Shown here in pieces: positions 3,987 to 64,000 of a DNA stretch of 64,000 nt. Position 1 is the first letter of the stretch. Each line of letters begins with the position of its first letter. Both the position numbers and the translations under genes were made by a program. The notes under the pieces were generated by a model, which did not search any database, had not been told where the DNA came from, and saw only the letters and a list, made by a program, of their open reading frames with translations. Location: the NCBI GenBank assembly GCA_022823405.1, contig JAJDXD010000095.1, positions 4,809 through 68,808 on the forward strand. The letters run 5' to 3'. The stretch comes from Gammaproteobacteria bacterium (lineage in GTDB: Bacteria > Pseudomonadota > Gammaproteobacteria > Arenicellales > JAJDZL01).

Positions 3987-5015
<1,029 letters not shown>

Positions 5016-9116: not shown

Positions 9117-9848
9117 ATGGGCATTTACTTTCTTTCCGATACGCATCTATCTCCAGATCAGCCCGCTGTTTACGATAAGTTTCTTCGCTATCTGCGTTCA
9201 ATTCGTAGAAACGCAGATGAACTCTATATTCTGGGTGATCTCTTTGACTATTGGATTGGGGACGATGGTAGTACATTGCTCGGACACAGTCCTGCAATCG
9301 AGGCGCTAGCTGAATTGTCTGATGCCGGTGTGCAAGTTTCAGTGATGCACGGCAATCGGGATTTTTTAATCGGGCCTGAATTTATCGCAGAAATTGGAGG
9401 GACATTGATTCCAGACCCCACCACCATCGAACTGAACGGTCAATCAGTTTTGCTGATGCATGGAGACAGCCTTTGCACTGATGATGTTGAGCATCAGCGT
9501 TATAGAGAAGTCGTTCTGTCTCCCCAATGGCAAGAATCAGTTCTTGAGTTGCCCGTTTCAGAACGCCTCAATCGGGCACTTGACATGCGTGCTGCAAGTG
9601 AGAAGAATAAACAGGTTAAGAGTCAAAGCCTGATGGATGTAAACCAGCAGTCGGTACTGCAAACCATGAAGCAGTTTGGCGTGAGAATTCTAATTCACGG
9701 CCACACTCACCGACCACAAATTCACCATTTTGAGATTGACGGCTGCGAAGCAACGCGGTACGTGTTGGGGGACTGGGGACGAAATAATGATGCAGTGATT
9801 GTGGTTAACTCAGAGGGAGCCATTAACCTACATCACGCGGAGATTTGA
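9117..9848 (+). CDS. lpxH: UDP-2,3-diacylglucosamine diphosphatase
   Basis: SDTHL, GDLFD, HGNRDF, HGD, HGHTH metallophosphoesterase motifs; divergent from cysS. Confidence 0.93.
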   Translation: MGIYFLSDTHLSPDQPAVYDKFLRYLRSIRRNADELYILGDLFDYWIGDDGSTLLGHSPAIEALAELSDAGVQVSVMHGNRDFLIGPEFIAEIGGTLIPDPTTIELNGQSVLLMHGDSLCTDDVEHQRYREVVLSPQWQESVLELPVSERLNRALDMRAASEKNKQVKSQSLMDVNQQSVLQTMKQFGVRILIHGHTHRPQIHHFEIDGCEATRYVLGDWGRNNDAVIVVNSEGAINLHHAEI

Positions 9849-9858
9849 GACTTTCTCC

Positions 9859-11385
9859 TTAACCGGATTCGGCCAATTCTGCCGTCTCGTACAACAGTGA
9901 GTTCTGATCGGACCCGCGTGCCTGATCGTTTCTCTTTTCGTTGAGTTCTAACAAAAAGTTTTTCGATACATCGCCCGTCACATACTCACCGTTAAACACT
10001 GATGTTTCAAATTCCACCACATCGGAGTTTGTGGTCAGCACAGAGGCAATCAAATCATCCAAACGCTGATAGAGGACATAGTCAGCACCGATCTGTTCGC
10101 AAATTTGTTCATAGGTGCGATTCGTTGCAATCAATTCTTCAGGGCTTGGAATATCAATGCCATAAACATTTGGATAACGAATCGGTGGGGCGGCAGAAGC
10201 AAGGTAAACCGATTTAGCACCGGCCTCCCGCGCCCGTTTGACAATCTGCCTTGCAGTCGTGCCACGTACGATTGAATCATCGACAAGCAGAACATTTTTG
10301 TTTTCAAACTCAAGATCAATCGCGTTCAATTTGTGACGTACCGAGTATTTTCGCTGTGACTGCCTGGGCATGATGAAAGTACGGGTGAAATATCGGTTCT
10401 TGATAAAGCCTTCACGGTATTTCACGCCAATCGTGTGAGCAAGCTGAATTGCCGCAGCCCGACTGGTATCCGGAATTGGCATGACAACATCAACATCGTG
10501 ATTCGGAAATTTCTCCAAAAATCGCTTACCAAGCCATTCACCCATTCTCAACCGGGTTTTATAAACGGAAATCCTGTCAATCATGGAATCTGGACGCGCC
10601 AAATAGACGTATTCAAATATGCAAGGCGAAGAATGTGCAGTTGAATCGCATTGCTTCGTATGAAGTTTGCCATCGCCATCAACAAAAATCGCTTCACCTG
10701 GTGCAACATCCCGTGCCACATCAAATCCAAGCACATCAAGCGCAACACTCTCTGAGGTAAACGCGAAATCCTGGCCACCGCTGTCTGCATCACGCGTACC
10801 GTATATAAGCGGACGAATTCCATTGCTATCGCGAAAGGCAAGAATCCCGCCGCCCACGATCAACACCGTTACCGCGAAAGCTCCTTTACATCTTTCATAC
10901 ACCTTTTCAACTGCCTTGAACACATGCTCAGGCTTGAGATTGCCGCTGCTTTCGCGCATTGTCGTGGAAAGCTCATAGGCCAGTACGTTCAACATAAGCT
11001 CGGAATCTGAACTGGTATTGATTTGTCGACGATCACCTTGAAAGACCTTCACACCCAATTCGTTTGCATTCGTCAGATTGCCGTTGTGTGCCAGAGCAAT
11101 TCCAAACGGAGAATTAACATAAAAGGGCTGACATTCAGCTTCGGAATTTCCACCTGCAGTTGGATAACGTACATGTCCAATTCCCATATTACCCTTGAAA
11201 TCCAATAGCGAATCTGCTGTAAAGACATCCCGCACCAATCCCTTTGAAGACCGAGAATAGACTCTCTGACCATCACTCGTGACAATGCCGGCAGCGTCCT
11301 GCCCACGGTGCTGTAAAACAGTCAACGCTTCAAAAAGTTCAAAACTACAACGCTCAGCGGATCGAATCGCGACAACGCCACACAT
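9859..11385 (-). CDS. purF: Amidophosphoribosyltransferase
   Basis: N-terminal MCG, QHRGQD, GHVRYPT, PRPP-binding LLVDDSIVRGTT. Confidence 0.98.
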   Translation of the reverse strand: MCGVVAIRSAERCSFELFEALTVLQHRGQDAAGIVTSDGQRVYSRSSKGLVRDVFTADSLLDFKGNMGIGHVRYPTAGGNSEAECQPFYVNSPFGIALAHNGNLTNANELGVKVFQGDRRQINTSSDSELMLNVLAYELSTTMRESSGNLKPEHVFKAVEKVYERCKGAFAVTVLIVGGGILAFRDSNGIRPLIYGTRDADSGGQDFAFTSESVALDVLGFDVARDVAPGEAIFVDGDGKLHTKQCDSTAHSSPCIFEYVYLARPDSMIDRISVYKTRLRMGEWLGKRFLEKFPNHDVDVVMPIPDTSRAAAIQLAHTIGVKYREGFIKNRYFTRTFIMPRQSQRKYSVRHKLNAIDLEFENKNVLLVDDSIVRGTTARQIVKRAREAGAKSVYLASAAPPIRYPNVYGIDIPSPEELIATNRTYEQICEQIGADYVLYQRLDDLIASVLTTNSDVVEFETSVFNGEYVTGDVSKNFLLELNEKRNDQARGSDQNSLLYETAELAESG

Positions 11386-11462: not shown

Positions 11463-11960
11463 TTAACTGGTCAATAATTCTGGCGTCAGATATGGAGACA
11501 CAAGTTCTCGCATCTGTACAACATAGGGTTCAAGCAGTGCCAATGCAACCGAATTCTGCCACCATGATGCATCTGGAATAAATGCAAATGTACTGACTAA
11601 AGCAAGCACGAGCACAATGACAAGGCCGCGGACGATGCCGAATGCAGCGCCTAAAGTACGATCAATTCCAACGATGGTTTGAACAACAATCAGACGCGCC
11701 AGTACGACACTTACAATGGTAGCAATTAACAATAGTGCGAAAAACAGAATTAAATTTGCAGCGATCACCTGCAAGGCAGGGTCGAGATTGTAGTCTGAAA
11801 GATAAGGGATGACCAGATCGGCATACGTCCAAGTACCCCACGCGGCAAATACCCAAGACAGCACAGACAGAAAGGACTGGATAAAGCCCCTGAAATAGCC
11901 AATCAATAGCGAAACAAGAATGACAACAACGCAGCCGATGTCAATGACGAGTGGAGACAA
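11463..11960 (-). CDS. cvpA: CvpA (colicin V production) family membrane protein
   Basis: Hydrophobic, GYFRGF and DRTLGAAFG motifs, canonical position before purF. Confidence 0.93.
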   Translation of the reverse strand: MSPLVIDIGCVVVILVSLLIGYFRGFIQSFLSVLSWVFAAWGTWTYADLVIPYLSDYNLDPALQVIAANLILFFALLLIATIVSVVLARLIVVQTIVGIDRTLGAAFGIVRGLVIVLVLALVSTFAFIPDASWWQNSVALALLEPYVVQMRELVSPYLTPELLTS

Positions 11961-12113
11961 CAGATTTAAACTATTTCAGTTTGTGTAGATACAGATACGC
12001 GCACCGCAAACCAAACTGCGTTACCCGCCTCATAATAATCCATATGAGCCATAGCGTTTTAAAAAAATGTCTGACCGTTCGCTCATCCAAATTGCCTGTT
12101 TGTTGAATTTCAG

Positions 12114-12890
12114 CTAACCTTCGAGCTGACGAACGATGACGGTACCCAAGGAAAGGGCTTTCGTTAGGTCCGGCAATGCTTCAGATGCTTTTTCTTTAGA
12201 AGAATATGGGCCCACCAGAACTCTGATCAATCCATTGGCAGGTTCTAATTTGTATGGCAGATTCCTAGTTCGTATCTTGTTACCGAGTTTATGCGCATTT
12301 TCAGCAATTTCAAATGCGCCGACCTGAATATACCAGGTTCCCACCGGAACAGTAGGTTTCAAGGATTTTGCTGATTCTGGCTGATTCGTGTCGACTTTAG
12401 CAACGTTGTTTGATTCACCGATCTGTCTGATCGTCAGCTGATTTACACCCAACTCAGCTTCAATCTTGTCTTTGGCACGATTAGTTTCCGCCTGAGAATG
12501 GTAAGGACCAATAAACATATGCAACAACTGATCTGCGCCAACTTCAATTTGAACGGGTTCTTGCAAACGCAAGTACTTAAGGCGTTCAACTTCAGTTTCT
12601 ATCTTACTCTGGTAAGAACCCACATGGATATACCAACCCGAAGCTAATGACACGCTATCAATCGATGATGAATTTAAACCAGCGGTCCTGGCAGCTGGAT
12701 CTTCGGACTGTGCAGTTGAAGCCGCTATATTTGCAGTCATTTGAGACACTGGAAGTTGGCTGTCGTTTTCAGAGAAATTCATAACTTTAAAAATAACAAG
12801 ATACCCGAAAACACCCCAGATCAACATGCCCGTTAGCATATGCCAAGGGTTCGATTTTGGCTCACGCAATCGGTTGAGGCGTTTGTTCAT
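12114..12890 (-). CDS. dedD: SPOR-domain cell division protein (DedD-like, two SPOR domains)
   Basis: N-terminal TM segment and two SPOR-like motifs (WYIHVGSY...FIGPY, WYIQVGAF...LVGPY); folC-dedD-cvpA position. Confidence 0.75.
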   Translation of the reverse strand: MNKRLNRLREPKSNPWHMLTGMLIWGVFGYLVIFKVMNFSENDSQLPVSQMTANIAASTAQSEDPAARTAGLNSSSIDSVSLASGWYIHVGSYQSKIETEVERLKYLRLQEPVQIEVGADQLLHMFIGPYHSQAETNRAKDKIEAELGVNQLTIRQIGESNNVAKVDTNQPESAKSLKPTVPVGTWYIQVGAFEIAENAHKLGNKIRTRNLPYKLEPANGLIRVLVGPYSSKEKASEALPDLTKALSLGTVIVRQLEG

Positions 12891-54400: not shown

Positions 54401-54870
54401 CAGTCCAACGTCTCCAGAATTTCGTCAATTCGCTGTGGCGTGAGATTTTCATAGTAATCCGTGCCAATCAGCGCGGCAGGTGCACCACCACAAGCAGCCA
54501 GACACTCTACTTCCTTGAGCGTAATCCGCCCGTCTTCAGTTGTTTCATCGAATCCTATTCCAAGTCGTTCCTGCAGATGATTGGCAACTGTTGCTGAACC
54601 TCTCAAGGCACATGAAATATTGGTACAGAGTGAAATTTTGTAACGACCAATCGGTTTCAAATCGTACATGGTGTAAAACGTCGCAACCTCAGCCACCTTG
54701 GCAGGCTCAACGCTAAGGATTCCCGCAATATAGGTCATCGTATCGACACTAATCCAGCCACATTCATTTTGCGCAATACGTAGCGCAGCGAGTAATGCGG
54801 CTCTCTCTTGACCGTCAGGATACTTGGCAACTTCGCTGTTGATTTCAACCAATGCTTCCTGCGACAGCAT
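54400..54870 (-). CDS. nuoE: NADH-quinone oxidoreductase subunit E
   Basis: CTNISC...[10 protein letters not shown]; real start MLSQEAL at 54870 overlapping the nuoD stop (TAATG). Confidence 0.96.
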
Positions 54871-56126
54871 TATCGGTCTACCTCTCCAAATACTATGTCT
54901 TGTGTCCCAATAACCGCAACTACATCGGCAAGCATATGACCGCGGCACATCGCGTCCAAAGCTGACAGGTGAGCAAATCCAGGTGCTCGAATCTTGAGGC
55001 GATAGGGTTTGTTGGCTCCATCTGAAATGAGATAGATGCCAAACTCACCTTTCGGCGCTTCTACTGCAGCGTAAACTTCACCCTCTTTCACGCAATAGCC
55101 TTCAGTAAAGAGCTTGAAGTGATGAATCAGCGATTCCATATCGCGTTTCATTGTTTCGCGACGAGGCGCGATGAGCTTTGCGTCATCGATCATAACCGGT
55201 CCCGGATTACTACGCAACCATTCGACGCACTGACGAACAATTCGATTCGACTGTCGCATCTCTTCAACCCGGCACAGATATCGATCGTAGCAATCGCCAT
55301 TTGTACCAACTGGAATATCAAAATCCAATTTGTCATAAACTTCGTAAGGCTGTTTCTTGCGTAAGTCCCACTCGATCCCAGAACCCCGAAGCATTGCACC
55401 TGTAAAACCTCGTGCGAGTGCCGTTTCAGGGGGTACGATGGCAATATCGACAGTACGCTGTTTCCAAATTCGGTTTTCAGTCAATAGCGTTTCGTAATCA
55501 TCTACACACCCCGGGAACCTTTCTGTGAAAGCCCAGATGAAATCCAGTAACGAGCCTTGGCGAGTCGCATTGAGATCTGCCAGTTTGCCTTTGCTTCGAA
55601 ATTTCGATGGTTCATATTGCGGCATCGTGTCGGGCAGGTCTCGATATACACCGCCAGGTCTGTAATAGGTTGCGTGCATCCGTGCGCCTGACGCAGCCTC
55701 GTAGCAGTCCATCAAGTCTTCACGTTCTCGAAAACAGTACAGGAAAACCGTCATTGCGCCGATATCAAGACCATGCGCACCAAGCCACAGCAAATGATTG
55801 AGGATGCGAGTAATCTCGTCGAACATCACCCGAATGTACTGCGCTCGAATGGGTGGGCTTACACCGAGCAGTTTTTCGATTGCCATCACATATGCGTGTT
55901 CATTGCACATCATAGACACGTAATCCAATCGGTCCATATAGCCGATGCTCTGGTTGAACGGTTTGGATTCGGCAAGCTTTTCGGTCGCCCTGTGGAGCAA
56001 ACCGATGTGCGGGTCGATGCGTTCAATCACCTCTCCATCCAATTCCATGACCAAGCGCAACACACCGTGGGCGGCCGGGTGCTGCGGCCCAAAATTCATG
56101 GTGTAGTTACGGATCTCGGTGACCAA
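54870..56126 (-). CDS. nuoD: NADH-quinone oxidoreductase subunit D
   Basis: [25 protein letters not shown] end; start placed at TTG 56126 behind AGAGGA. Confidence 0.97.
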
Positions 56127-56724
56127 AACTATCCTCTCGAATGACACGCGGAACGAGAGTCCGCGGCTCAATTGATACCGGCTCGTAAACAACACGTCCC
56201 TTCTCGACGTCATAACGCATTTCAACATAGCCGGACAAAGGAAAATCTTTTCTGAACGGATGTCCGATAAAGCCGTAGTCTGTTAGCAGTCTTCGAAGGT
56301 CTGGATGGCCTTCAAACACAATCCCAAAAAGATCAAATGCTTCGCGCTCAAACCAGTCGGCACAGGGCCAAACATCAATCACCGAAGCGACCATTGGCAT
56401 ATCGTCATTGAGAAATGCTTTAACGCGAAGGCGATGGTTGTGCTGAACCGATAACAGGTGATACACAACAGCGTAGCGAGCACCCTGCCAGGCTCTTGGC
56501 GGGTCTTGCTCTCCGTAAGTTGAATAATCGACACCACAAAGATCAATGAGCTGCTCGAAGCAAGTGTCGGTGTTATCGCGAAGTGCGGTGCATACATCAA
56601 CGATCAAACCTGCGTCCACAACAATGGTCATCTCGCCCCTGGATTGAACAGAATCCAAAACCGTATCACCCAGCAGGTTTTCGACAGCGCGGGAGAGTTC
56701 GGTCAGGGACGCCATTGGTGCCAA
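56107..56724 (-). CDS. nuoC: NADH-quinone oxidoreductase subunit C
   Basis: [32 protein letters not shown]. Confidence 0.97.
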
Positions 56725-57201
56725 TTATTTGGCTATAGTATTTGTGCGTTGAATTTTTCGCTGTAGCTGAAGAATGCCATAAACCAGCGCTTCGGCAGTT
56801 GGTGGACAGCCTGGAACATAGACATCGACAGGAACGATTCGGTCGCAACCTCGAACAACCGAGTAGGAATAATGGTAGTAGCCGCCACCATTCGCGCACG
56901 ACCCCATTGAAATCACCCAGCGAGGCTCTGGCATCTGATCATAAACTTTACGTAATGCAGGTGCCATTTTGTTGACCAGAGTTCCTGCGACAATCATCAC
57001 ATCTGACTGCCGGGGACTGGGACGAAAGATAATTCCGAACCTGTCAAGATCGTACCGCGCTGCTCCGGCATGCATCATTTCTACAGCACAGCAAGCGAGA
57101 CCGAAAGTCATTGGCCACATTGCTCCCGTACGCGCCCAGTTCACTAATTTGTCCATCGATGTTGTAACAACACCTTGTGACATAATGCCTTCAATCGACA
57201 T
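56725..57201 (-). CDS. nuoB: NADH-quinone oxidoreductase subunit B
   Basis: [19 protein letters not shown]. Confidence 0.98.
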
Positions 57202-57204
57202 GGT

Positions 57205-57561
57205 TTACTCCCACTCTAGTGCACCTTTCATCCATTCATAAATGAATCCGACCACTAATACAGCCAGGAAAATCATCATTGCAACGAAACCGAACATGCC
57301 AATCTCGTCGAGTGCAACCGCCCAGGGAAACAGGAATGCAATTTCCAGATCGAAAATAATGAACAGAATAGCAACAAGGTAATAACGAACATCAAACTTC
57401 ATGCGGCTGTCTTCAAATGCTTCAAAGCCGCACTCATATGGAGAAAGTTTTTCCTTGTCGGGTCGGTTTGGTCCCAGCAGTCTTCCAGCAGACAACATGG
57501 CAAGACCCATTACGATTGCCACCGCCAGAAAAATCAGGACAGGAATATAGTTACTCAGCAT
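57205..57561 (-). CDS. nuoA: NADH-quinone oxidoreductase subunit A
   Basis: PYECGF, FIIFDLE, GALEWE; start placed at ATG 57561. Confidence 0.97.
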
Positions 57562-57608
57562 CGTTCCGATTGAACTCATTTAATTCCGGACAATCTGTAA
57601 AAAAAGTC

Positions 57609-57694
57609 TGGTGCCGAAGGCCGGACTTGAACCGGCACGGCTTGCGCCACCGCCCCCTCAAGACGGCGTGTCTACCAAATTCCACCACTTCGGC
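57609..57694 (-). tRNA. tRNA-Leu(GAG)
   Basis: GCCGAAG acceptor, GGTAGACAC D-arm, anticodon loop TTGAGGG, long variable arm, GGTTCAAGTCC, encoded CCA. Confidence 0.97.
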
Positions 57695-57712
57695 TAACAT
57701 AAACTACTGACC

Positions 57713-58060
57713 TTACTCAGGAACCTTTGGCACCTCATCCTGTGTGGTCTCCCCGGGTACCTGCGGCGTCTGCGATTCTGTAACTGATTCGATTACAGAT
57801 TCAGTTACACTTTGCGGTGTACCAACACCGGTGTAAATATAAGCAAGGCCCAAAGCAATTCCAAAAAATATGGTTGCCAGCACTGCAGTTATTCGGGTCA
57901 AAAAATTGGCAGACCCTCGACTGCCAAATACTGAACTTGAACCGCCACCAAATACAGCCCCCATATCTGATCCTTTGCCTCTTTGCAGCAAGATCAGCAC
58001 CACAAGGGCAACTGAAACAACAAAAAACAATCCTAACAAAATTCTGACAACGAGTTCCAT
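57713..58060 (-). CDS. secG: Preprotein translocase subunit SecG
   Basis: LLQRGKGSDMGAVFGGGSS, FGSRGSANFLTR. Confidence 0.97.
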   Translation of the reverse strand: MELVVRILLGLFFVVSVALVVLILLQRGKGSDMGAVFGGGSSSVFGSRGSANFLTRITAVLATIFFGIALGLAYIYTGVGTPQSVTESVIESVTESQTPQVPGETTQDEVPKVPE

Positions 58061-58069
58061 TTTCCCAAC

Positions 58070-58837
58070 CTATCTTTGTGCCGCCTTGCAAATTTCAATA
58101 AATTGTGCTGCTTTTAGTGATGCGCCACCGACCAGGCACCCATCAACATCATTTTGATCCAGCACCTCGGCAGCGTTCTCCCCAGTTACACTTCCGCCGT
58201 AAAGGACTCTGCATCCATCCGCGGCACTTTGACTTAGTGTTGCAATACGATTGCGGATCAAATGATGAACTTCCTGAGCTTGCTCGGGTGTTGCTGAACA
58301 ACCCGTGCCAATCGCCCAAATCGGTTCATAAGCAATTGTAATTTGGTCAACTAACTGCTTTCCGCAATGCTCCAATATAGAATCAATCTGACGTTCAATG
58401 ACCAAACCTGTCTTTTCAGACTGACGTTCATTCAATGTCTCACCAACGCAGACAATCGGAGTTAACTGACATTCAATAATGGAAATTGCCTTCCGGGCAA
58501 CGTCCTCATCTGTTTCACCGTTGTACTGACGCCTTTCTGAGTGACCACAAATTACGTACTCGCAACCGACATCTTTCAGCATATTAGATGATACTTCACC
58601 TGTATAGGCGCCTGCTGAGTGTTCGCTACAGTTTTGCGCTCCAAGTGATACTAAAGAATTCGATGAAATTTGCTGTGCAACATGTTGAAGATAAACAAAT
58701 GGTGGGCAGATAACAATCGATGGCGAATTGAACTGCCGAGTACCATTTAAAACCTCTTCCAGAAGCGAATGCGCCATATCAAAGGCACCATTCATTTTCC
58801 AGTTTGCAACAATCAGCTTTTGTCGTAATTGCGTCAT
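58070..58837 (-). CDS. tpiA: Triosephosphate isomerase
   Basis: NWKMN, GHSERR, AYEPIWAIGTG, YGGSV, VGGASL. Confidence 0.98.
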   Translation of the reverse strand: MTQLRQKLIVANWKMNGAFDMAHSLLEEVLNGTRQFNSPSIVICPPFVYLQHVAQQISSNSLVSLGAQNCSEHSAGAYTGEVSSNMLKDVGCEYVICGHSERRQYNGETDEDVARKAISIIECQLTPIVCVGETLNERQSEKTGLVIERQIDSILEHCGKQLVDQITIAYEPIWAIGTGCSATPEQAQEVHHLIRNRIATLSQSAADGCRVLYGGSVTGENAAEVLDQNDVDGCLVGGASLKAAQFIEICKAAQR

Positions 58838-59329
58838 ATAACCCCAAATGACTTGTGTGTCACTTCACACCTTTGAACCTATGGCTTCAAGAAATTCCCT
58901 TTGATGATTTTTTAACTCTTTTAGTTACTGAAAACTACTTACGTACTGAAATGAATTACTTCTGAATTCAAGCACTTAATATGTGGATTTCGACAGGAAT
59001 ATTCACCCGTCGAAAGACGCATATTATATGTGCCGTGAATAGAAAAAGACGTCTCGCAATAGTTGAAGATACAAATGCCTATGTATATATTTGCTAATGG
59101 TTTCAAACCACTCGAGGTCTTTCAAAATTGCGATTTGCTAATTTGGGCTTTCTATTGCAAAATAGAATGTCCGGGATTCTTGAATTGCCTATCTCGAATT
59201 TAGGAGTTGTAAAAATGAAATGTTCACGCTCCATCCGTAGTCATCATTTCACGGACATTCAACTGCCAGGTTGGTTCAGATCACTCAACGGCTAAAGTTT
59301 TAAGCCCACAATAGGTTAGGAGGCGAACC

Positions 59330-59773
59330 ATGTATACGATATCTTCCTTAATTCGCTCGAGGGGATTGGTCTGGACAATTTCGCCAGACAATACGGTTCT
59401 TGACGCTCTGCATCTATTGGCTGAACGCAATATAGGGGTCCTACCGGTGGTTGATGCCGACGAAAATCTGGTTGGAATTTTTAGCGAAAGAGATTATGCA
59501 AGAAGGGTGATTTTGCTGGGTAGAGCCTCCAAGGACACTCAGATTTCAGAAGTCATGACTGAAAATGTGTACACAGTTGGTCCAGAAGATAAAATCGAGG
59601 ACTGCATGAAAATTGTCGTTGAACGCGGCTTTCGTCATCTGCCGGTTGTTGACGACGGTGTTTTGATTGGCGTTGTATCCGCCAATGACTTACTGGCAGA
59701 GGTCATCAGAACCAGAGAACAGCAAATCGGCAATCTCGAGAACCTGCTCACAGGTGCGGGTGAAATCACTTAA
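59330..59773 (+). CDS. Stand-alone tandem CBS-domain protein
   Basis: Two CBS repeats (GVLPVVD...GIFSERD; FRHLPVVD...GVVS); AGGAGG RBS. Confidence 0.9.
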   Translation: MYTISSLIRSRGLVWTISPDNTVLDALHLLAERNIGVLPVVDADENLVGIFSERDYARRVILLGRASKDTQISEVMTENVYTVGPEDKIEDCMKIVVERGFRHLPVVDDGVLIGVVSANDLLAEVIRTREQQIGNLENLLTGAGEIT

Positions 59774-59862
59774 CTAGCGCAGTATTTTGAAAGTCATAAT
59801 ACACGCAAGTCCAAATTTTCAGCATCATTCGAAAAATTAACACCGATAAAGAGGTTGGAAAG

Positions 59863-60390
59863 TTGAAATTTGTCCACCGCAGTTTCGTTCTATTCTGTTT
59901 GCTGTTGCTCGTTCCGCTAACTACGAACGCTGCGCTCAGGGATGATTTGCAGGAGGTATCCGGGACAGCCGCACCTTCTTTTGACAACGTTCAGTGGTTA
60001 CATCAGACTGGCGACTTTCCGGACTCTTTGAAGGGTAAGGTATTGCTGGTGAATTTTTGGGCAACTTGGTGTCCGCCCTGCGTGGAAGAGCTTCCATCCA
60101 TTCAAAATGCTCGTGATACTTTTGATCAGAGTCACTTTGAAGTAGTCTCTGTTAACGTCGGCGAAAAAGTTGCCGATATCAAAGCTTTTTTAGAAACTTT
60201 ACCTGTAAAACTCACATTCCCTATCGTTGTTGATGAAAAATTATCAGCCTATGCAGAATGGCGTGTTAGCCCGCTGCCAACCACATTTTTGGTTGATCGG
60301 GTCGGTAAAATTCGTTACCAGGCACTTGGTGGAAGGAACTTTGCTTCGGCCAATATCCGAGCAATTATTCAAGAACTGATAGACGAATAA
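59863..60390 (+). CDS. TlpA/ResA-like periplasmic thioredoxin
   Basis: Signal peptide, VNFWATWCPPCVEELP, cis-Pro LPTT. Confidence 0.9.
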   Translation: MKFVHRSFVLFCLLLLVPLTTNAALRDDLQEVSGTAAPSFDNVQWLHQTGDFPDSLKGKVLLVNFWATWCPPCVEELPSIQNARDTFDQSHFEVVSVNVGEKVADIKAFLETLPVKLTFPIVVDEKLSAYAEWRVSPLPTTFLVDRVGKIRYQALGGRNFASANIRAIIQELIDE

Positions 60391-60453
60391 GACATACGAA
60401 TTTATTGTGGGCTGTGATTCGCTAGTCCAACGCCATCAAATCTTCGGTTAATC

Positions 60454-60906
60454 GTGTTGTTAGATAGTTATCGGCCCAAGGTAATCGTCACAAAGATCGG
60501 ACTGGATGGTCACGATCGAGGAAGCCGTTTGGTAGCTACCAAACTACGAGACAGCGGAATGGAAGTAGTCTATACGCCTCCCTGGCAGTCAGTATCAACG
60601 GTCGTACGTCTGGCCGTTGAAGAAGATGCAGATGTAATCGGCATTAGCTCACTTGCAACGGACCACCTACTTATTCCGGACTTAGTCAGTGCACTGCATA
60701 ATGCGGGTCTTGATCATATAGGAATTGTCGTTGGTGGCATAATTCCAGACGATGATGAACAAGCATTAATTGAGTGTGGTGTACATCGAGTCTTTCATCC
60801 GGGTAGTTCGCTGGTCGAAATTTCGGATTTTGTACGCGATCTGGCGATTAAATCACGGACCCATTCTTTGCGAACTTTTCAGGTAGTCAGTAATGAAGAA
60901 AGCTAA
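60454..60906 (+). CDS. Cobalamin-binding small subunit of an acyl-CoA mutase
   Basis: GLDGHDRG (DxHxxG), IGISSL, VGGIIP. Confidence 0.93.
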
Positions 60907-62578
60907 AGTTGTAAATCTGTCAGATTCTGGTGCACCGAATTCAAGAAATCTTTGGGAACAGCAGTACAACCAGTTACTCCCGGAAGACCGAGAAATTTCA
61001 AACCGGTCTGGAATTCCAATCAAGCCGTTATATTCGCCGGAAGACTGGAGTGACGAGAACTATGCGGACAGACTCGGCTACCCTGGGCAGATTCCCATGA
61101 CTCGCGGCATTTACCCCACGATGCACCGCGGGCGGACCTGGAGTCAAAGACAGCTCATCGGATACGGCATTCCGTCAGATTACAATGAACGGTTGCGTAG
61201 GCTGCTAGACGCTGGAAACAATGCTATCAGTCTGATACCGTGCAATTCAATTTATCGCGGTTTCGATGCTGACGAAGTCGATCCTAAACTGCTCGGCACC
61301 TGTGGGGTGATTGTCAACACAATTGACGATATGGACCGATGTTTCCAAGACGTCGACATTGCTGCACTGTCAACAGCCATGAATGATCCATTACCATTTA
61401 CACTGTTGGCGCTGCTGCTAGGCGTTGCCACCAGGCGTGGTATAGACTGGAATCAGGTTTCAGGGACGTCAAACCAAAGCGACTATATTTCACATTATGT
61501 TGCGAACCACATGTTCTTCAGACTTTCTCTGGAAGGCTCCAGACGAGTCCTGGTAGATCACATTGCCTTCTGTCAAGAGCGCGTTCCAAATTGGAATCCG
61601 CTATCCGTTGTGGGTCAGCACACCCAGCAGGCAGGTGCTACTCCGGCCCAGGCAATGGCATTCACGCTAGCAACAGCAATTCAATATGCTGAAGACTGTG
61701 CAACCCGCGGTATGGACCCAGACATATTCCTAGAGCGATTCACATTCTTTTTCGATATCTCAATCAGTTTTTTCGAAGAAATCGCTAAATGCAGAGCCGG
61801 CCGGAGAATCTGGCAGCGTATCGTAAGAGAAAGGTTAGGTGCAAAAAATCCTAAAACCTGGCGGTTCAAGTTTCATGGGCAAACATCAGGAGTTGATTTA
61901 ACCCGTCAACAACCACTCAACAACATCTCACGCGTCTCGATTCAAGCACTCGCCGGTATCTTCTCAGGACTGCAGTCTCTGCACACTGATGCTTACGATG
62001 AAGTTCTGAGCGTCCCGACTGAAAAAGCCGCTCGAATTGCAGTTGCGACTCAGAATATTATTCGTGAAGAAGCAGGTTGTGCAGATGTAATTGACCCGTT
62101 AGCGGGTTCCTACTATGTTGAATCGCTGACCGATCAGATGGAAGAGAAAATCGTTGAAACCATGGAGCAGATTGATGCCGCTGGCGGTATGTTCAAAGCG
62201 GTAGAATCGGGCCTCATTCAGCGATGGATTGGTGAATCTGCAATGCAATTTCAAAGCCAGGTAGACTGTGGTGACCAAACGATCGTCGGAGTGAACAAAT
62301 ATCAGTTGGAAGAACAGGACTCAGTTGCCGAACCTCTTAAGCGGCCAACAGAGACGGTAATTCAATCTCAACTTGATAGTCTAGCGAAATTCAAAGCCAA
62401 CCGAAACCAAGCAGAATTCAATTCAGCGCTTTCACAACTTCAAAGTGCTGCGCAAAATCCACAAAAGAACATCTACGAGGCGATTGTCAATGCAGTCGTT
62501 GGCGGACTCACTCATGGTGAGGTTGTTCGATATGTTCGACAGGAGTTGGGATTCGGACAACCGCAAACGATTTTGTAA
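60893..62578 (+). CDS. Acyl-CoA mutase large subunit (methylmalonyl-CoA mutase family, non-MCM specificity residues)
   Basis: [44 protein letters not shown]; no B12 domain. Confidence 0.92.
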
Positions 62579-63579
62579 TGACTTTGAGTAATGTTGAACG
62601 GTCCGAGGATGCTCAAGAAAAGCTAGCCCAACTGATTCGCTCAGACCGTAATGCGCTAGCAAAGGCAATCACAATTGTCGAAAACAATCTTGATGGCACC
62701 AGTGCGGTACTGAGTGCAATTCAATGTAATCTTGGCCGCGCACACGTCGTTGGAGTAACTGGCCCTCCAGGCGTTGGAAAATCTACGCTCATCGATGCCT
62801 GTATCGCAGAATTTCGAAAACTTGGGAAATCGGTAGCGATTCTTGCGATTGATCCAAGCAGTCATTTCAGTGGTGGTGCAATTCTGGGTGATCGTGTCAG
62901 AATGGCCGAACACTCGGACGACAATGGTGTATTCATCCGGTCGGTTGCCGCTCGCGGCCATCTTGGGGGTCTGTCTGCTACAGCGCTCAACATAATCCAC
63001 CTGTTCGACGCTGCAAACTGGGATGTCATTATTGTTGAAACGGTTGGTGCAGGTCAGTCTGAAATTGAAATTGCGGAACTGGCGGACACAACGGTCGTTG
63101 TTGAATCACCTGGTTTAGGTGACGAAATTCAGGCAATTAAGGCAGGGCTACTAGAAATTGCTGACATTATCGCGGTCAATAAATCAGATCTCCCTCACGC
63201 GGATATTACAGTAAGTGAATTGATGCATGCCCTATCCATGCGACACTCCTCGAAGTCAGTTCAAGTTTCAAAAACTTGTGCAACCGAGCGACAGGGAGTT
63301 CAAGAACTAGTTGCAGAGATTGTCAAGCATGGTGTGAAGGTTATGCAAACTAACCGAACCAAATGCGTATCTGAGCGATCAAGAAAAATTGTCGCACGTG
63401 TGGTGGGGGAAAGTGTCACGCGTCAATTTAGAAAATTGAACTCAAAGGAAGCTGACGTTTTCGCTGAGTTAGTGCAGGTCGGAGAATTAAACTCCGACAC
63501 AATAGCTGAATCAGTAATTCAACATTTAATTTCGACTCTGAGAGAACCGAGTAACTTTCCAGAAAGCGAACAGAATTAG
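62578..63579 (+). CDS. meaB: MeaB/ArgK G-protein metallochaperone
   Basis: GPPGVGKST, DPSS..SGGAILGDRVRM, ETVGAGQSE, NKSD. Confidence 0.94.
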   Translation: MTLSNVERSEDAQEKLAQLIRSDRNALAKAITIVENNLDGTSAVLSAIQCNLGRAHVVGVTGPPGVGKSTLIDACIAEFRKLGKSVAILAIDPSSHFSGGAILGDRVRMAEHSDDNGVFIRSVAARGHLGGLSATALNIIHLFDAANWDVIIVETVGAGQSEIEIAELADTTVVVESPGLGDEIQAIKAGLLEIADIIAVNKSDLPHADITVSELMHALSMRHSSKSVQVSKTCATERQGVQELVAEIVKHGVKVMQTNRTKCVSERSRKIVARVVGESVTRQFRKLNSKEADVFAELVQVGELNSDTIAESVIQHLISTLREPSNFPESEQN

Positions 63580-63590
63580 TCCGTTATCCG

Positions 63591-63881
63591 TCAACGTTTT
63601 TCGAAAATTCTCTCGCCGGATTCACGGATGATCTGCTGGCCCTTGAAAACAGCATGTTTACATGCAGCGTCAAAATCTGTATGCGTATCAGCACGTATAA
63701 AGTAGTGTTCACGCATGTTTCCATTTTCATCCAACTTTCGAACGTAGCCAGCAGTGACAAAATTGCCCTTTTGTTTTAGCGGAGCCGGTTTGATGACGAA
63801 TCCTTCATAATCTACCTGTTCGACATCAGGCTCAGCTTGAGCGGTATCACCTTTTCCCATCAATCGACTTAAAAGTCCCAT
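63591..63881 (-). CDS. HlyU-family (PF10115-like) small protein
   Basis: MGLLSRLMG start, YEGFVIKPAP, HYFIRADT, QIIRESGERIF pattern recalled for this family. Confidence 0.7.
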   Translation of the reverse strand: MGLLSRLMGKGDTAQAEPDVEQVDYEGFVIKPAPLKQKGNFVTAGYVRKLDENGNMREHYFIRADTHTDFDAACKHAVFKGQQIIRESGERIFEKR

Positions 63882-64000
63882 TTTTCTTTCCGCGGTAATG
63901 AATTCTGATTGTCGTGATTGATACAGTCTGTAACCTACTTAAGATTACACTGCTTCACTTTTGTACTCTGCATAATATCACGATAGCAGGGATTGAGTGT

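Follow-up and report, generated by a model that had tools for sequence, protein, structure and literature searches.

A split acyl-CoA mutase operon assigned to the pivalyl-CoA mutase clade in a member of the Arenicellales

Introduction

The described enzymes closest to the system reported here belong to the adenosylcobalamin (AdoCbl)-dependent acyl-CoA mutase superfamily, in which methylmalonyl-CoA mutase (MCM; human, 2xij; M. tuberculosis, 6oxc) carries out an AdoCbl radical 1,2-shift with a MeaB partner. The isobutyryl-CoA mutase IcmF, which acts on uncharged branched acyl-CoAs, has its internal G-domain fused into one polypeptide with the mutase, and a passage of PMC9974510, citing Cracan and Banerjee 2012, mentions a weak side activity of IcmF on pivalyl-CoA/isovaleryl-CoA. 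HcmAB, the 2-hydroxyisobutyryl-CoA mutase (HCM) of Aquincola tertiaricarbonis (4r3u), whose ortholog in Xanthobacter autotrophicus is Xaut_5021/5018, has split α and β subunits and a MeaB-like chaperone, and acts at a tertiary or quaternary carbon center. A native pivalyl-CoA mutase (PCM) of X. autotrophicus was reportedly characterized by Kitanishi, Cracan and Banerjee in J Biol Chem in 2015, and we take Xaut_5043 and Xaut_5044 to be, presumably, the large and small subunits of this biochemically characterized enzyme. Here, we analyze a three-gene mutase operon in a 64,000-nt stretch of DNA (hereafter, the window; positions 4,809–68,808 of contig JAJDXD010000095.1, assembly GCA_022823405.1) from a gammaproteobacterium of the order Arenicellales.

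On sequence evidence, the operon is a split AdoCbl-dependent acyl-CoA mutase with its own MeaB and an ortholog of the Xaut_5043/5044-type PCM clade, and PCM activity is probably its real function. The contig that contains the window is 109.6 kb long, and the assembly has 3.15 Mb and is 94.5% complete.

Results

Three overlapping genes encode a split mutase and its chaperone

The operon comprises 3 plus-strand genes, which encode a small B12-binding subunit, a large substrate-binding subunit, and a MeaB-type G-protein chaperone (Table 1). Their open reading frames (ORFs) coincide exactly with the overlapping operon that had been proposed in an initial annotation of the window. The small- and large-subunit genes overlap by 14 nt and the large-subunit and MeaB genes by 1 nt (TAATG); the overlap of the MeaB start with the large-subunit stop suggests translational coupling. 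The Pfam and NCBIfam scores of all 3 proteins are far above chance: (i) the small subunit matched the B12-binding family PF02310 (1.4e-21) and TIGR00640 (131.6 bits, cut-off 57); (ii) the large subunit matched the MM_CoA_mutase family PF01642 (3.5e-161); and (iii) the MeaB protein matched PF03308 (4.8e-85) and TIGR00750 (298.4 bits, cut-off 240.75). The small subunit contains the base-off/His-on motif DGHDRG together with GISSL (SxL) and VVGG (GG), and the combination of a PF01642 barrel and a PF02310 domain with DxHxxG, SxL, and GG places the pair in the AdoCbl-dependent acyl-CoA mutase superfamily. The MeaB protein carries the P-loop GPPGVGKS and the motifs ETVGAGQ and NKSD. None of the 3 reading frames is disrupted, and no cofactor or GTPase motif is missing.

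The large subunit shares one clade with Xaut_5043

When 72,556 plasmids were searched by tblastn with the large subunit, the matches were bimodal, with 6 plasmid records at 59–64% identity and all other mutases at no more than 40%. The large subunit is 62.5% identical (99% of the query) to Xaut_5043 of X. autotrophicus Py2 plasmid pXAUT01, the small subunit is 60% identical to Xaut_5044, and MeaB is 53% identical to Xaut_5042. Both operons have a small- and a large-subunit gene followed by a MeaB gene, in identical order and with overlaps, as would be expected of the PCM clade. The 2 operons differ in their surroundings. On pXAUT01, the TetR gene Xaut_5045 precedes Xaut_5044, Xaut_5043, and Xaut_5042, and a PaaD-type thioesterase, 2 acyl-CoA ligases (a PaaK-like ligase among the adjoining genes), and an ABC transporter come next, whereas none of these adjoins the window operon, which is chromosomal and lies in housekeeping synteny after a CBS-domain gene and a redoxin gene.

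Apart from Xaut_5043, pXAUT01 encodes only one split mutase, Xaut_5021, which is 83% identical to HCM (4r3u) and carries the Ile/Asp/Gln residues. Because Xaut_5021 is an HCM ortholog, Xaut_5043 is the sole Leu/Asn enzyme on the plasmid, which lends indirect support to Xaut_5043/5044 being the PCM. A literature search on pivalyl-CoA mutase and the Xaut genes yielded no description of PCM residues.

The HCM cluster of pXAUT01 (Xaut_5018–5023, with a PaaK-type ligase, MeaB, and an adenosyltransferase) lies about 20 kb from Xaut_5042–5045 within 236.6–264.9 kb, and both mutase clusters adjoin epoxide/coenzyme M pathway genes. At 190–210 kb on a plasmid of Sphingobium sp. YC-XJ3, the TetR/small/large cassette is duplicated within about 10 kb, and the duplicated cassette includes a divergent thiolase and an AMP-ligase. 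Transposases of IS6100 and ISSp1 lie between the copies, so the module is mobile in that organism.

We placed the large subunit in a tree of 34 large-subunit sequences (IQ-TREE, LG+C20+F+G4), which included human and M. tuberculosis MCM, Aquincola HCM, the MCM and IcmF of this genome, a Paracoccus MCM and a Paracoccus paralog resembling ethylmalonyl-CoA mutase (ECM), 3 other split mutases, Xaut_5043, and clade members from 8 phyla. The ECM-like reference was the second mutase on Paracoccus denitrificans chromosome 2 (FRTYAG/YLSRGTY), which is assigned by its features and is unnamed by curated models; a first Paracoccus candidate (H49) was dropped as a canonical MCM. The window enzyme, Xaut_5043, and 22 other sequences formed one clade with 100/100 support that was recovered in 100% of bootstrap trees; its stem measures 2.84 substitutions per site, and its internal branches are much shorter. 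MCM, the ECM-like mutase, HCM, and IcmF all fell outside the PCM clade, with IcmF as the outgroup, and the Arenicellales sequences formed a supported subclade (100/99). The resemblance to a Xanthobacter Leu/Asn mutase, which the initial annotation had proposed, is thus borne out.

Active-site residues set the enzyme apart from the other mutase classes

Residue positions were compared through HMMER alignments to solved structures and through a MAFFT alignment, and both agree. Leu88 of the RQLIG segment (residues 86–90) lies opposite Tyr89 of RQYAG in MCM, the Ile of RQIAG in HCM, and a Phe in IcmF. Asn205 of VANH lies opposite Arg207 of VRNT in MCM, the Gln of AQKE in HCM, and a Gln in IcmF, and Gln242 of VGQH stands where MCM has Tyr243. 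QSDYISH replaces QNDILKE, with a one-residue insertion relative to GTI-QNDILKE. Leu88, Asn205, and QSDYISH had been read from the window in advance with exact numbering, neither alignment places Tyr/Arg at the 2 positions, and the residue pairs quoted for the reference classes (Tyr/Arg in MCM, Phe/Gln in IcmF, Ile/Gln in HCM) were all seen in the alignment. Since the carboxylate-holding Arg is replaced by Asn205 and the Tyr residues by Leu88 and Gln242, the pocket would suit a small, uncharged, highly branched acyl group.

Six or more segments of the alignment distinguish the PCM clade from all other classes, and the window enzyme has each of them: (i) RQ(Y/I/F)AG is changed to RQLIG; (ii) S(V/T)(A/D)FD to SLIPC; (iii) MT(M/I)NG to MN-DP, with a one-residue deletion; (iv) GTx-Q(N/A)DILKE...(R/Q) to a SNQSDY-type segment followed by N, with 2 insertions; (v) SGYH to VGQH; and (vi) SFF(W/F)xxG to TFFFDIS. 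Among 121 sequences (120 homologs and Xaut_5043), RQL[IV]G was present in all 121 and the full SNQSDY...ANH motif in 120. Xaut_5043 itself carries RQLIG and the Leu/Asn signature, and its first shell is identical to that of the window enzyme (Leu88, Pro116/Cys117, the SNQSDY insertion, Asn205/His206, and Gln242). Leu88, Pro116, Cys117, Asn205, His206, and Gln242 are invariant in the clade alignment, which has about 190 invariant columns with identities down to 62%.

It is very improbable that the operon encodes a divergent form of the methylmalonyl-, ethylmalonyl-, isobutyryl-, or 2-hydroxyisobutyryl-CoA mutase, even though close homologs are annotated "methylmalonyl-CoA mutase" and the best matches among solved structures are HCM (4e-111) and human MCM (3e-96). 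The identity to each class is only 27–36% (HCM, 36%; MCM, 35%; IcmF, 32%; the ECM-like paralog, 27%), and the diagnostic residues of each class are missing: (i) Tyr89, Arg207, and Tyr243 of MCM are replaced by Leu, Asn, and Gln, and the MCM equivalog model NF006944 gave 431.9 bits against a cut-off of 876; (ii) IcmF has a Phe/Gln pair instead of Leu/Asn, in addition to its fused architecture, and its model NF045497 gave 227 bits against a cut-off of 1500; (iii) HCM has Ile90, Asp117, Gln208, and Tyr-His where the window enzyme has Leu88, Ile115, Asn205, and Gln-His; and (iv) the Tyr/Arg pair, shortened N-terminus, and fused B12 domain of ECM are absent. In addition, all of these classes fall outside the clade in the tree (100/100 support), and a canonical MCM and a canonical IcmF are already present in the genome (described below). 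The earlier statement that the enzyme is not an MCM therefore holds.

The second shell divides the clade into subtypes

Beyond the first shell, the window enzyme has I115, N118, V/I120-Y121, and M207, whereas the Xanthobacter enzyme has L115, C118, G120-F121, and Q207; the corresponding stretches are SLIPCNSIY and ANHMFF in the window and SLLPCCSGF and ANHQFY in Xanthobacter. The second-shell residues of the window enzyme are thus not those of Xaut_5043 (C118, Q207), a difference that does not define the clade but limits the transfer of substrate preference. The window type (N118, M207, Y198) accounts for 66 of the 70 classified loci, and the C118/Q207 type was found in Xanthobacter, Sphingobium, and Bradyrhizobium. 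A third subtype ("DCISH") has Cys in place of Tyr198 (DCISHFVANHMFF; loci L041, L047, L050, L051, L056, L060, L066, L077, L082, and L083), and at most of its loci the linked genes are TetR, a 4HBT thioesterase, and either a ligase or an enoyl-CoA hydratase. Two loci (L068 and L087) have VCNH instead of VANH.

These subtypes bear on whether the N118/M207 enzymes, as members of the PCM clade, isomerize a different uncharged branched acyl-CoA in nature, for example a longer 2,2-dimethylacyl-CoA to a 3-methylacyl-CoA or an intermediate in the degradation of a marine gem-dimethyl or tert-butyl natural product. We regard this as unlikely, though more probable than the other alternatives. The second-shell pocket is unlike that of the Xanthobacter enzyme (N118/M207 versus C118/Q207), the N/M type is the predominant one and a third type exists, and the Arenicellales operon, which has no ligase or TetR and lies in housekeeping synteny, is unlike the plasmid catabolic cassettes of Xanthobacter and Sphingobium. 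However, the 6 first-shell residues are invariant across the subtypes, the branches within the clade are short relative to its stem, and TetR (28), ligases (16), and a 4HBT thioesterase (10) are frequent linked genes at the N/M-type loci outside the Arenicellales as well, so that gene context does not cleanly separate the N/M from the C/Q subtype.

The operon is common and syntenic in Arenicellales

A peptide signature of the clade was searched in 185,579 species genomes and was found in at least 569 of them. The lineages among the matches listed include Arenicellales, Burkholderiales, Rhodospirillales, Hyphomicrobiales, Nitrospira, SAR324, Actinomycetota, and Acidobacteriota, and the closest relatives among these matches are metagenome-assembled genomes of Arenicellales with large subunits up to 97% identical. 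In the order of the window, the gene is present in 25 of 81 genomes and 10 of 30 genera, and in the genus of the window in 9 of 11 genomes. Given these counts, the conserved synteny, and an Arenicellales subclade of its own, the presence of the gene in this lineage is no surprise, contrary to what the initial annotation had supposed. Outside the Arenicellales, a TetR gene usually stands ahead of the operon, and ligases, a 4HBT thioesterase, or an enoyl-CoA hydratase lie with it; TetR, the acyl-CoA ligases, and the 4HBT thioesterase typically form an acid-activation module together.

In Arenicellales, the gene order is a CBS protein, a redoxin, the small subunit, the large subunit, MeaB, and then an HlyU-family gene on the opposite strand. 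The redoxin gene lies 63 nt upstream of the small-subunit gene and is syntenic in 25 Arenicellales loci. No plus-strand terminator-like site was found between the redoxin gene and the mutase genes, and the CBS-domain gene may be co-transcribed with the operon. The convergent HlyU-family gene lies directly downstream of MeaB in 22–25 Arenicellales loci. Promoter-like and terminator-like sites around the operon occur at background level only, and neither a cobalamin riboswitch nor any other Rfam match was found in positions 58700–64000. A minus-strand housekeeping block further upstream (positions 54870–58837; nuoD, nuoC, nuoB, nuoA, secG, and tpiA, by sequence recognition only) recurs upstream of the mutase in about 11–13 related loci. 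With CBS, redoxin, HlyU-family, and housekeeping genes as flanks, no adjoining or co-occurring gene points to terpenoid or sterol breakdown, which had been suggested as a source of the substrate.

Table 1. Positions of the operon genes, their signature motifs, and the neighboring genes in the window
Feature	Position (nt)	Strand	Remarks
Mutase small (B12-binding) subunit	60454–60906	+	150 aa; GTG start
DGHDRG motif (small subunit)	60505–60522	+	Residues 18–23
Mutase large (substrate-binding TIM-barrel) subunit, PCM clade	60893–62578	+	561 aa
RQLIG segment (large subunit)	61148–61162	+	Leu88
SLIPCNS segment (large subunit)	61229–61249	+	
AMNDPLPF segment (large subunit)	61376–61399	+	
Segment with VANH (large subunit)	61463–61519	+	Asn205
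VGQH segment (large subunit)	61610–61621	+	Gln242
MeaB-type G-protein chaperone	62578–63579	+	333 aa
CBS-domain pair protein	59330–59773	+	147 aa; PF00571, 6.7e-28; syntenic in about 25 Arenicellales loci
Secreted TlpA/redoxin-like thiol:disulfide oxidoreductase	59863–60390	+	175 aa; WCPPC; PF00578, 8.4e-21; PF08534
HlyU-family small protein	63591–63881	−	96 aa; PF10115, 1.7e-21; convergent with operon end

The same loci speak to whether the operon has begun to decay or fallen silent, as a relic that has no current function. The lack of a linked regulator or ligase would fit such a relic, but the 3 frames and all cofactor and GTPase motifs are intact, the Arenicellales orthologs among the matches listed are 72–97% identical with conserved synteny and no internal stops, and so many alignment columns remain invariant across the clade that we consider decay hardly credible.

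The genome encodes related mutases and an outlet for isovaleryl-CoA

The genome carries a canonical fused MCM with RQYAG and FMVRNTY, which is broken across 2 contigs, at the end of C21 (16331–17938) and at the start of C31 (2–1381). The 2 pieces overlap near-identically, not identically, which suggests strain heterogeneity or an assembly break. On C31, the MCM piece is followed by genes resembling propionyl-CoA carboxylase (PCC)-beta and PCC-alpha. A canonical IcmF scored 1791 bits against the equivalog cut-off of 1500 and shares contig C7 with the liu cluster. The functions of MCM and IcmF are therefore already covered by separate genes. The genome was also searched for accessory genes: a PduO-type adenosyltransferase is encoded elsewhere in the genome, on C30, and a CoA ligase was found on contig C87 that is generic and unlinked to the mutase.

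The liu cluster on C7 is complete, comprising isovaleryl-CoA dehydrogenase (IVD), a thiolase, methylcrotonyl-CoA carboxylase (MCC)-beta, a hydratase, MCC-alpha, and HMG-CoA lyase, so that the product isovaleryl-CoA has an outlet. IVD scored 653 bits to solved IVDs versus 321 bits to other acyl-CoA dehydrogenases, and MCC-beta about 819 bits to solved MCC versus less than 300 bits to true PCC-beta. IVD was present in all 25 mutase-positive genomes and in 72 of the 81 genomes of the order (p = 0.05 for the co-occurrence). The liu cluster and IcmF lie about 6 kb apart on C7 (583–18563), and between them stand 3 tandem paralogous ORFs of about 190 aa (9304–9888, 10130–10714, and 11591–12163) with near-identical N-termini (MFLFLIYLLPMLLRFFSGSAIHL...).

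Contig C87 (9621–18449) holds a collinear copy of Xaut_5035–5040 with 49–61% identity, which is unlinked to the mutase and consists of a 649-aa AMP-ligase, an ABC ATPase, 2 permeases, a binding protein, a second ATPase, and a PaaK-like ligase. We searched the order with the first 40 residues of the C87 ligase as the query, and the matches were frames of about 650 aa; the ligase was found in 63 of 81 genomes, compared with 25 of 81 for the mutase. Co-occurrence of ligase and mutase (Fisher p = 0.0085) was dropped as support, being confounded by phylogeny.

Discussion

Homology to the Xanthobacter PCM clade makes pivalyl-CoA/isovaleryl-CoA the likely substrate pair, and an acyl-CoA with a quaternary carbon, which had been proposed for the window enzyme at the outset, is the best-supported substrate on the same grounds. 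By analogy with the superfamily, the small subunit would bind AdoCbl in the base-off/His-on form through His20, Co–C homolysis would generate a 5'-deoxyadenosyl radical, the radical would take a hydrogen from the acyl-CoA in the large-subunit barrel, and a 1,2-shift of the thioester carbon would interconvert pivalyl-CoA (2,2-dimethylpropionyl-CoA) and isovaleryl-CoA (3-methylbutyryl-CoA). MeaB, with the PduO-type adenosyltransferase, would load and repair the cofactor. The likely direction would be from pivalyl-CoA, or a close 2,2-dimethyl analogue, to isovaleryl-CoA, which the liu enzymes (IVD, MCC alpha and beta, hydratase, and HMG-CoA lyase) could convert to acetoacetate and acetyl-CoA.

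Several points weigh against pivalyl-CoA as the natural substrate: (i) the equation of Xaut_5043/5044 with the characterized PCM is presumptive; (ii) the Xanthobacter enzyme, taken as the assayed one, is of the minority C118/Q207 type, and the N118/M207 members are known from sequence alone; (iii) the operon in this genome lacks a linked ligase, regulator, or transporter; (iv) the C87 ligase is generic in the order and provides no specific evidence for a link to the mutase; (v) IVD is nearly universal in the order, so that its co-occurrence with the mutase carries little weight; and (vi) we know of no natural source of pivalate in the habitat of this organism. The different second-shell subtype, the lack of a linked ligase, and the lack of a pivalate source known to us together limit what can be said about the substrate.

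It is conceivable, though we think it doubtful, that the vertically inherited N118/M207 operon of Arenicellales, which has no ligase or regulator, is not a pivalate enzyme in nature. The substrate could then be a longer 2,2-dimethylacyl-CoA that, if not isomerized, would block β-oxidation, or the enzyme could act on pivalyl-CoA derived from tert-leucine or marine tert-butyl compounds. If true, either alternative would add a new specificity or physiological role to the PCM clade.

The operon of the window is an ordinary, generically annotated ortholog within a known enzyme family and is common in its marine lineage. To our knowledge, no natural pivalate source has been established for the habitats of clade members. 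In databases, the family goes by the names "methylmalonyl-CoA mutase" or "acyl-CoA mutase family protein", whereas the evidence supports the label of a PCM-type mutase, and the signature RQL[IV]G, SLxPC, SNQSDY, ANH, and GQH is usable to re-annotate hundreds of genomes. The clade, with its species ranging from Arenicellales to Nitrospira, SAR324, and Actinomycetota, is far wider than one assayed plasmid enzyme suggests.

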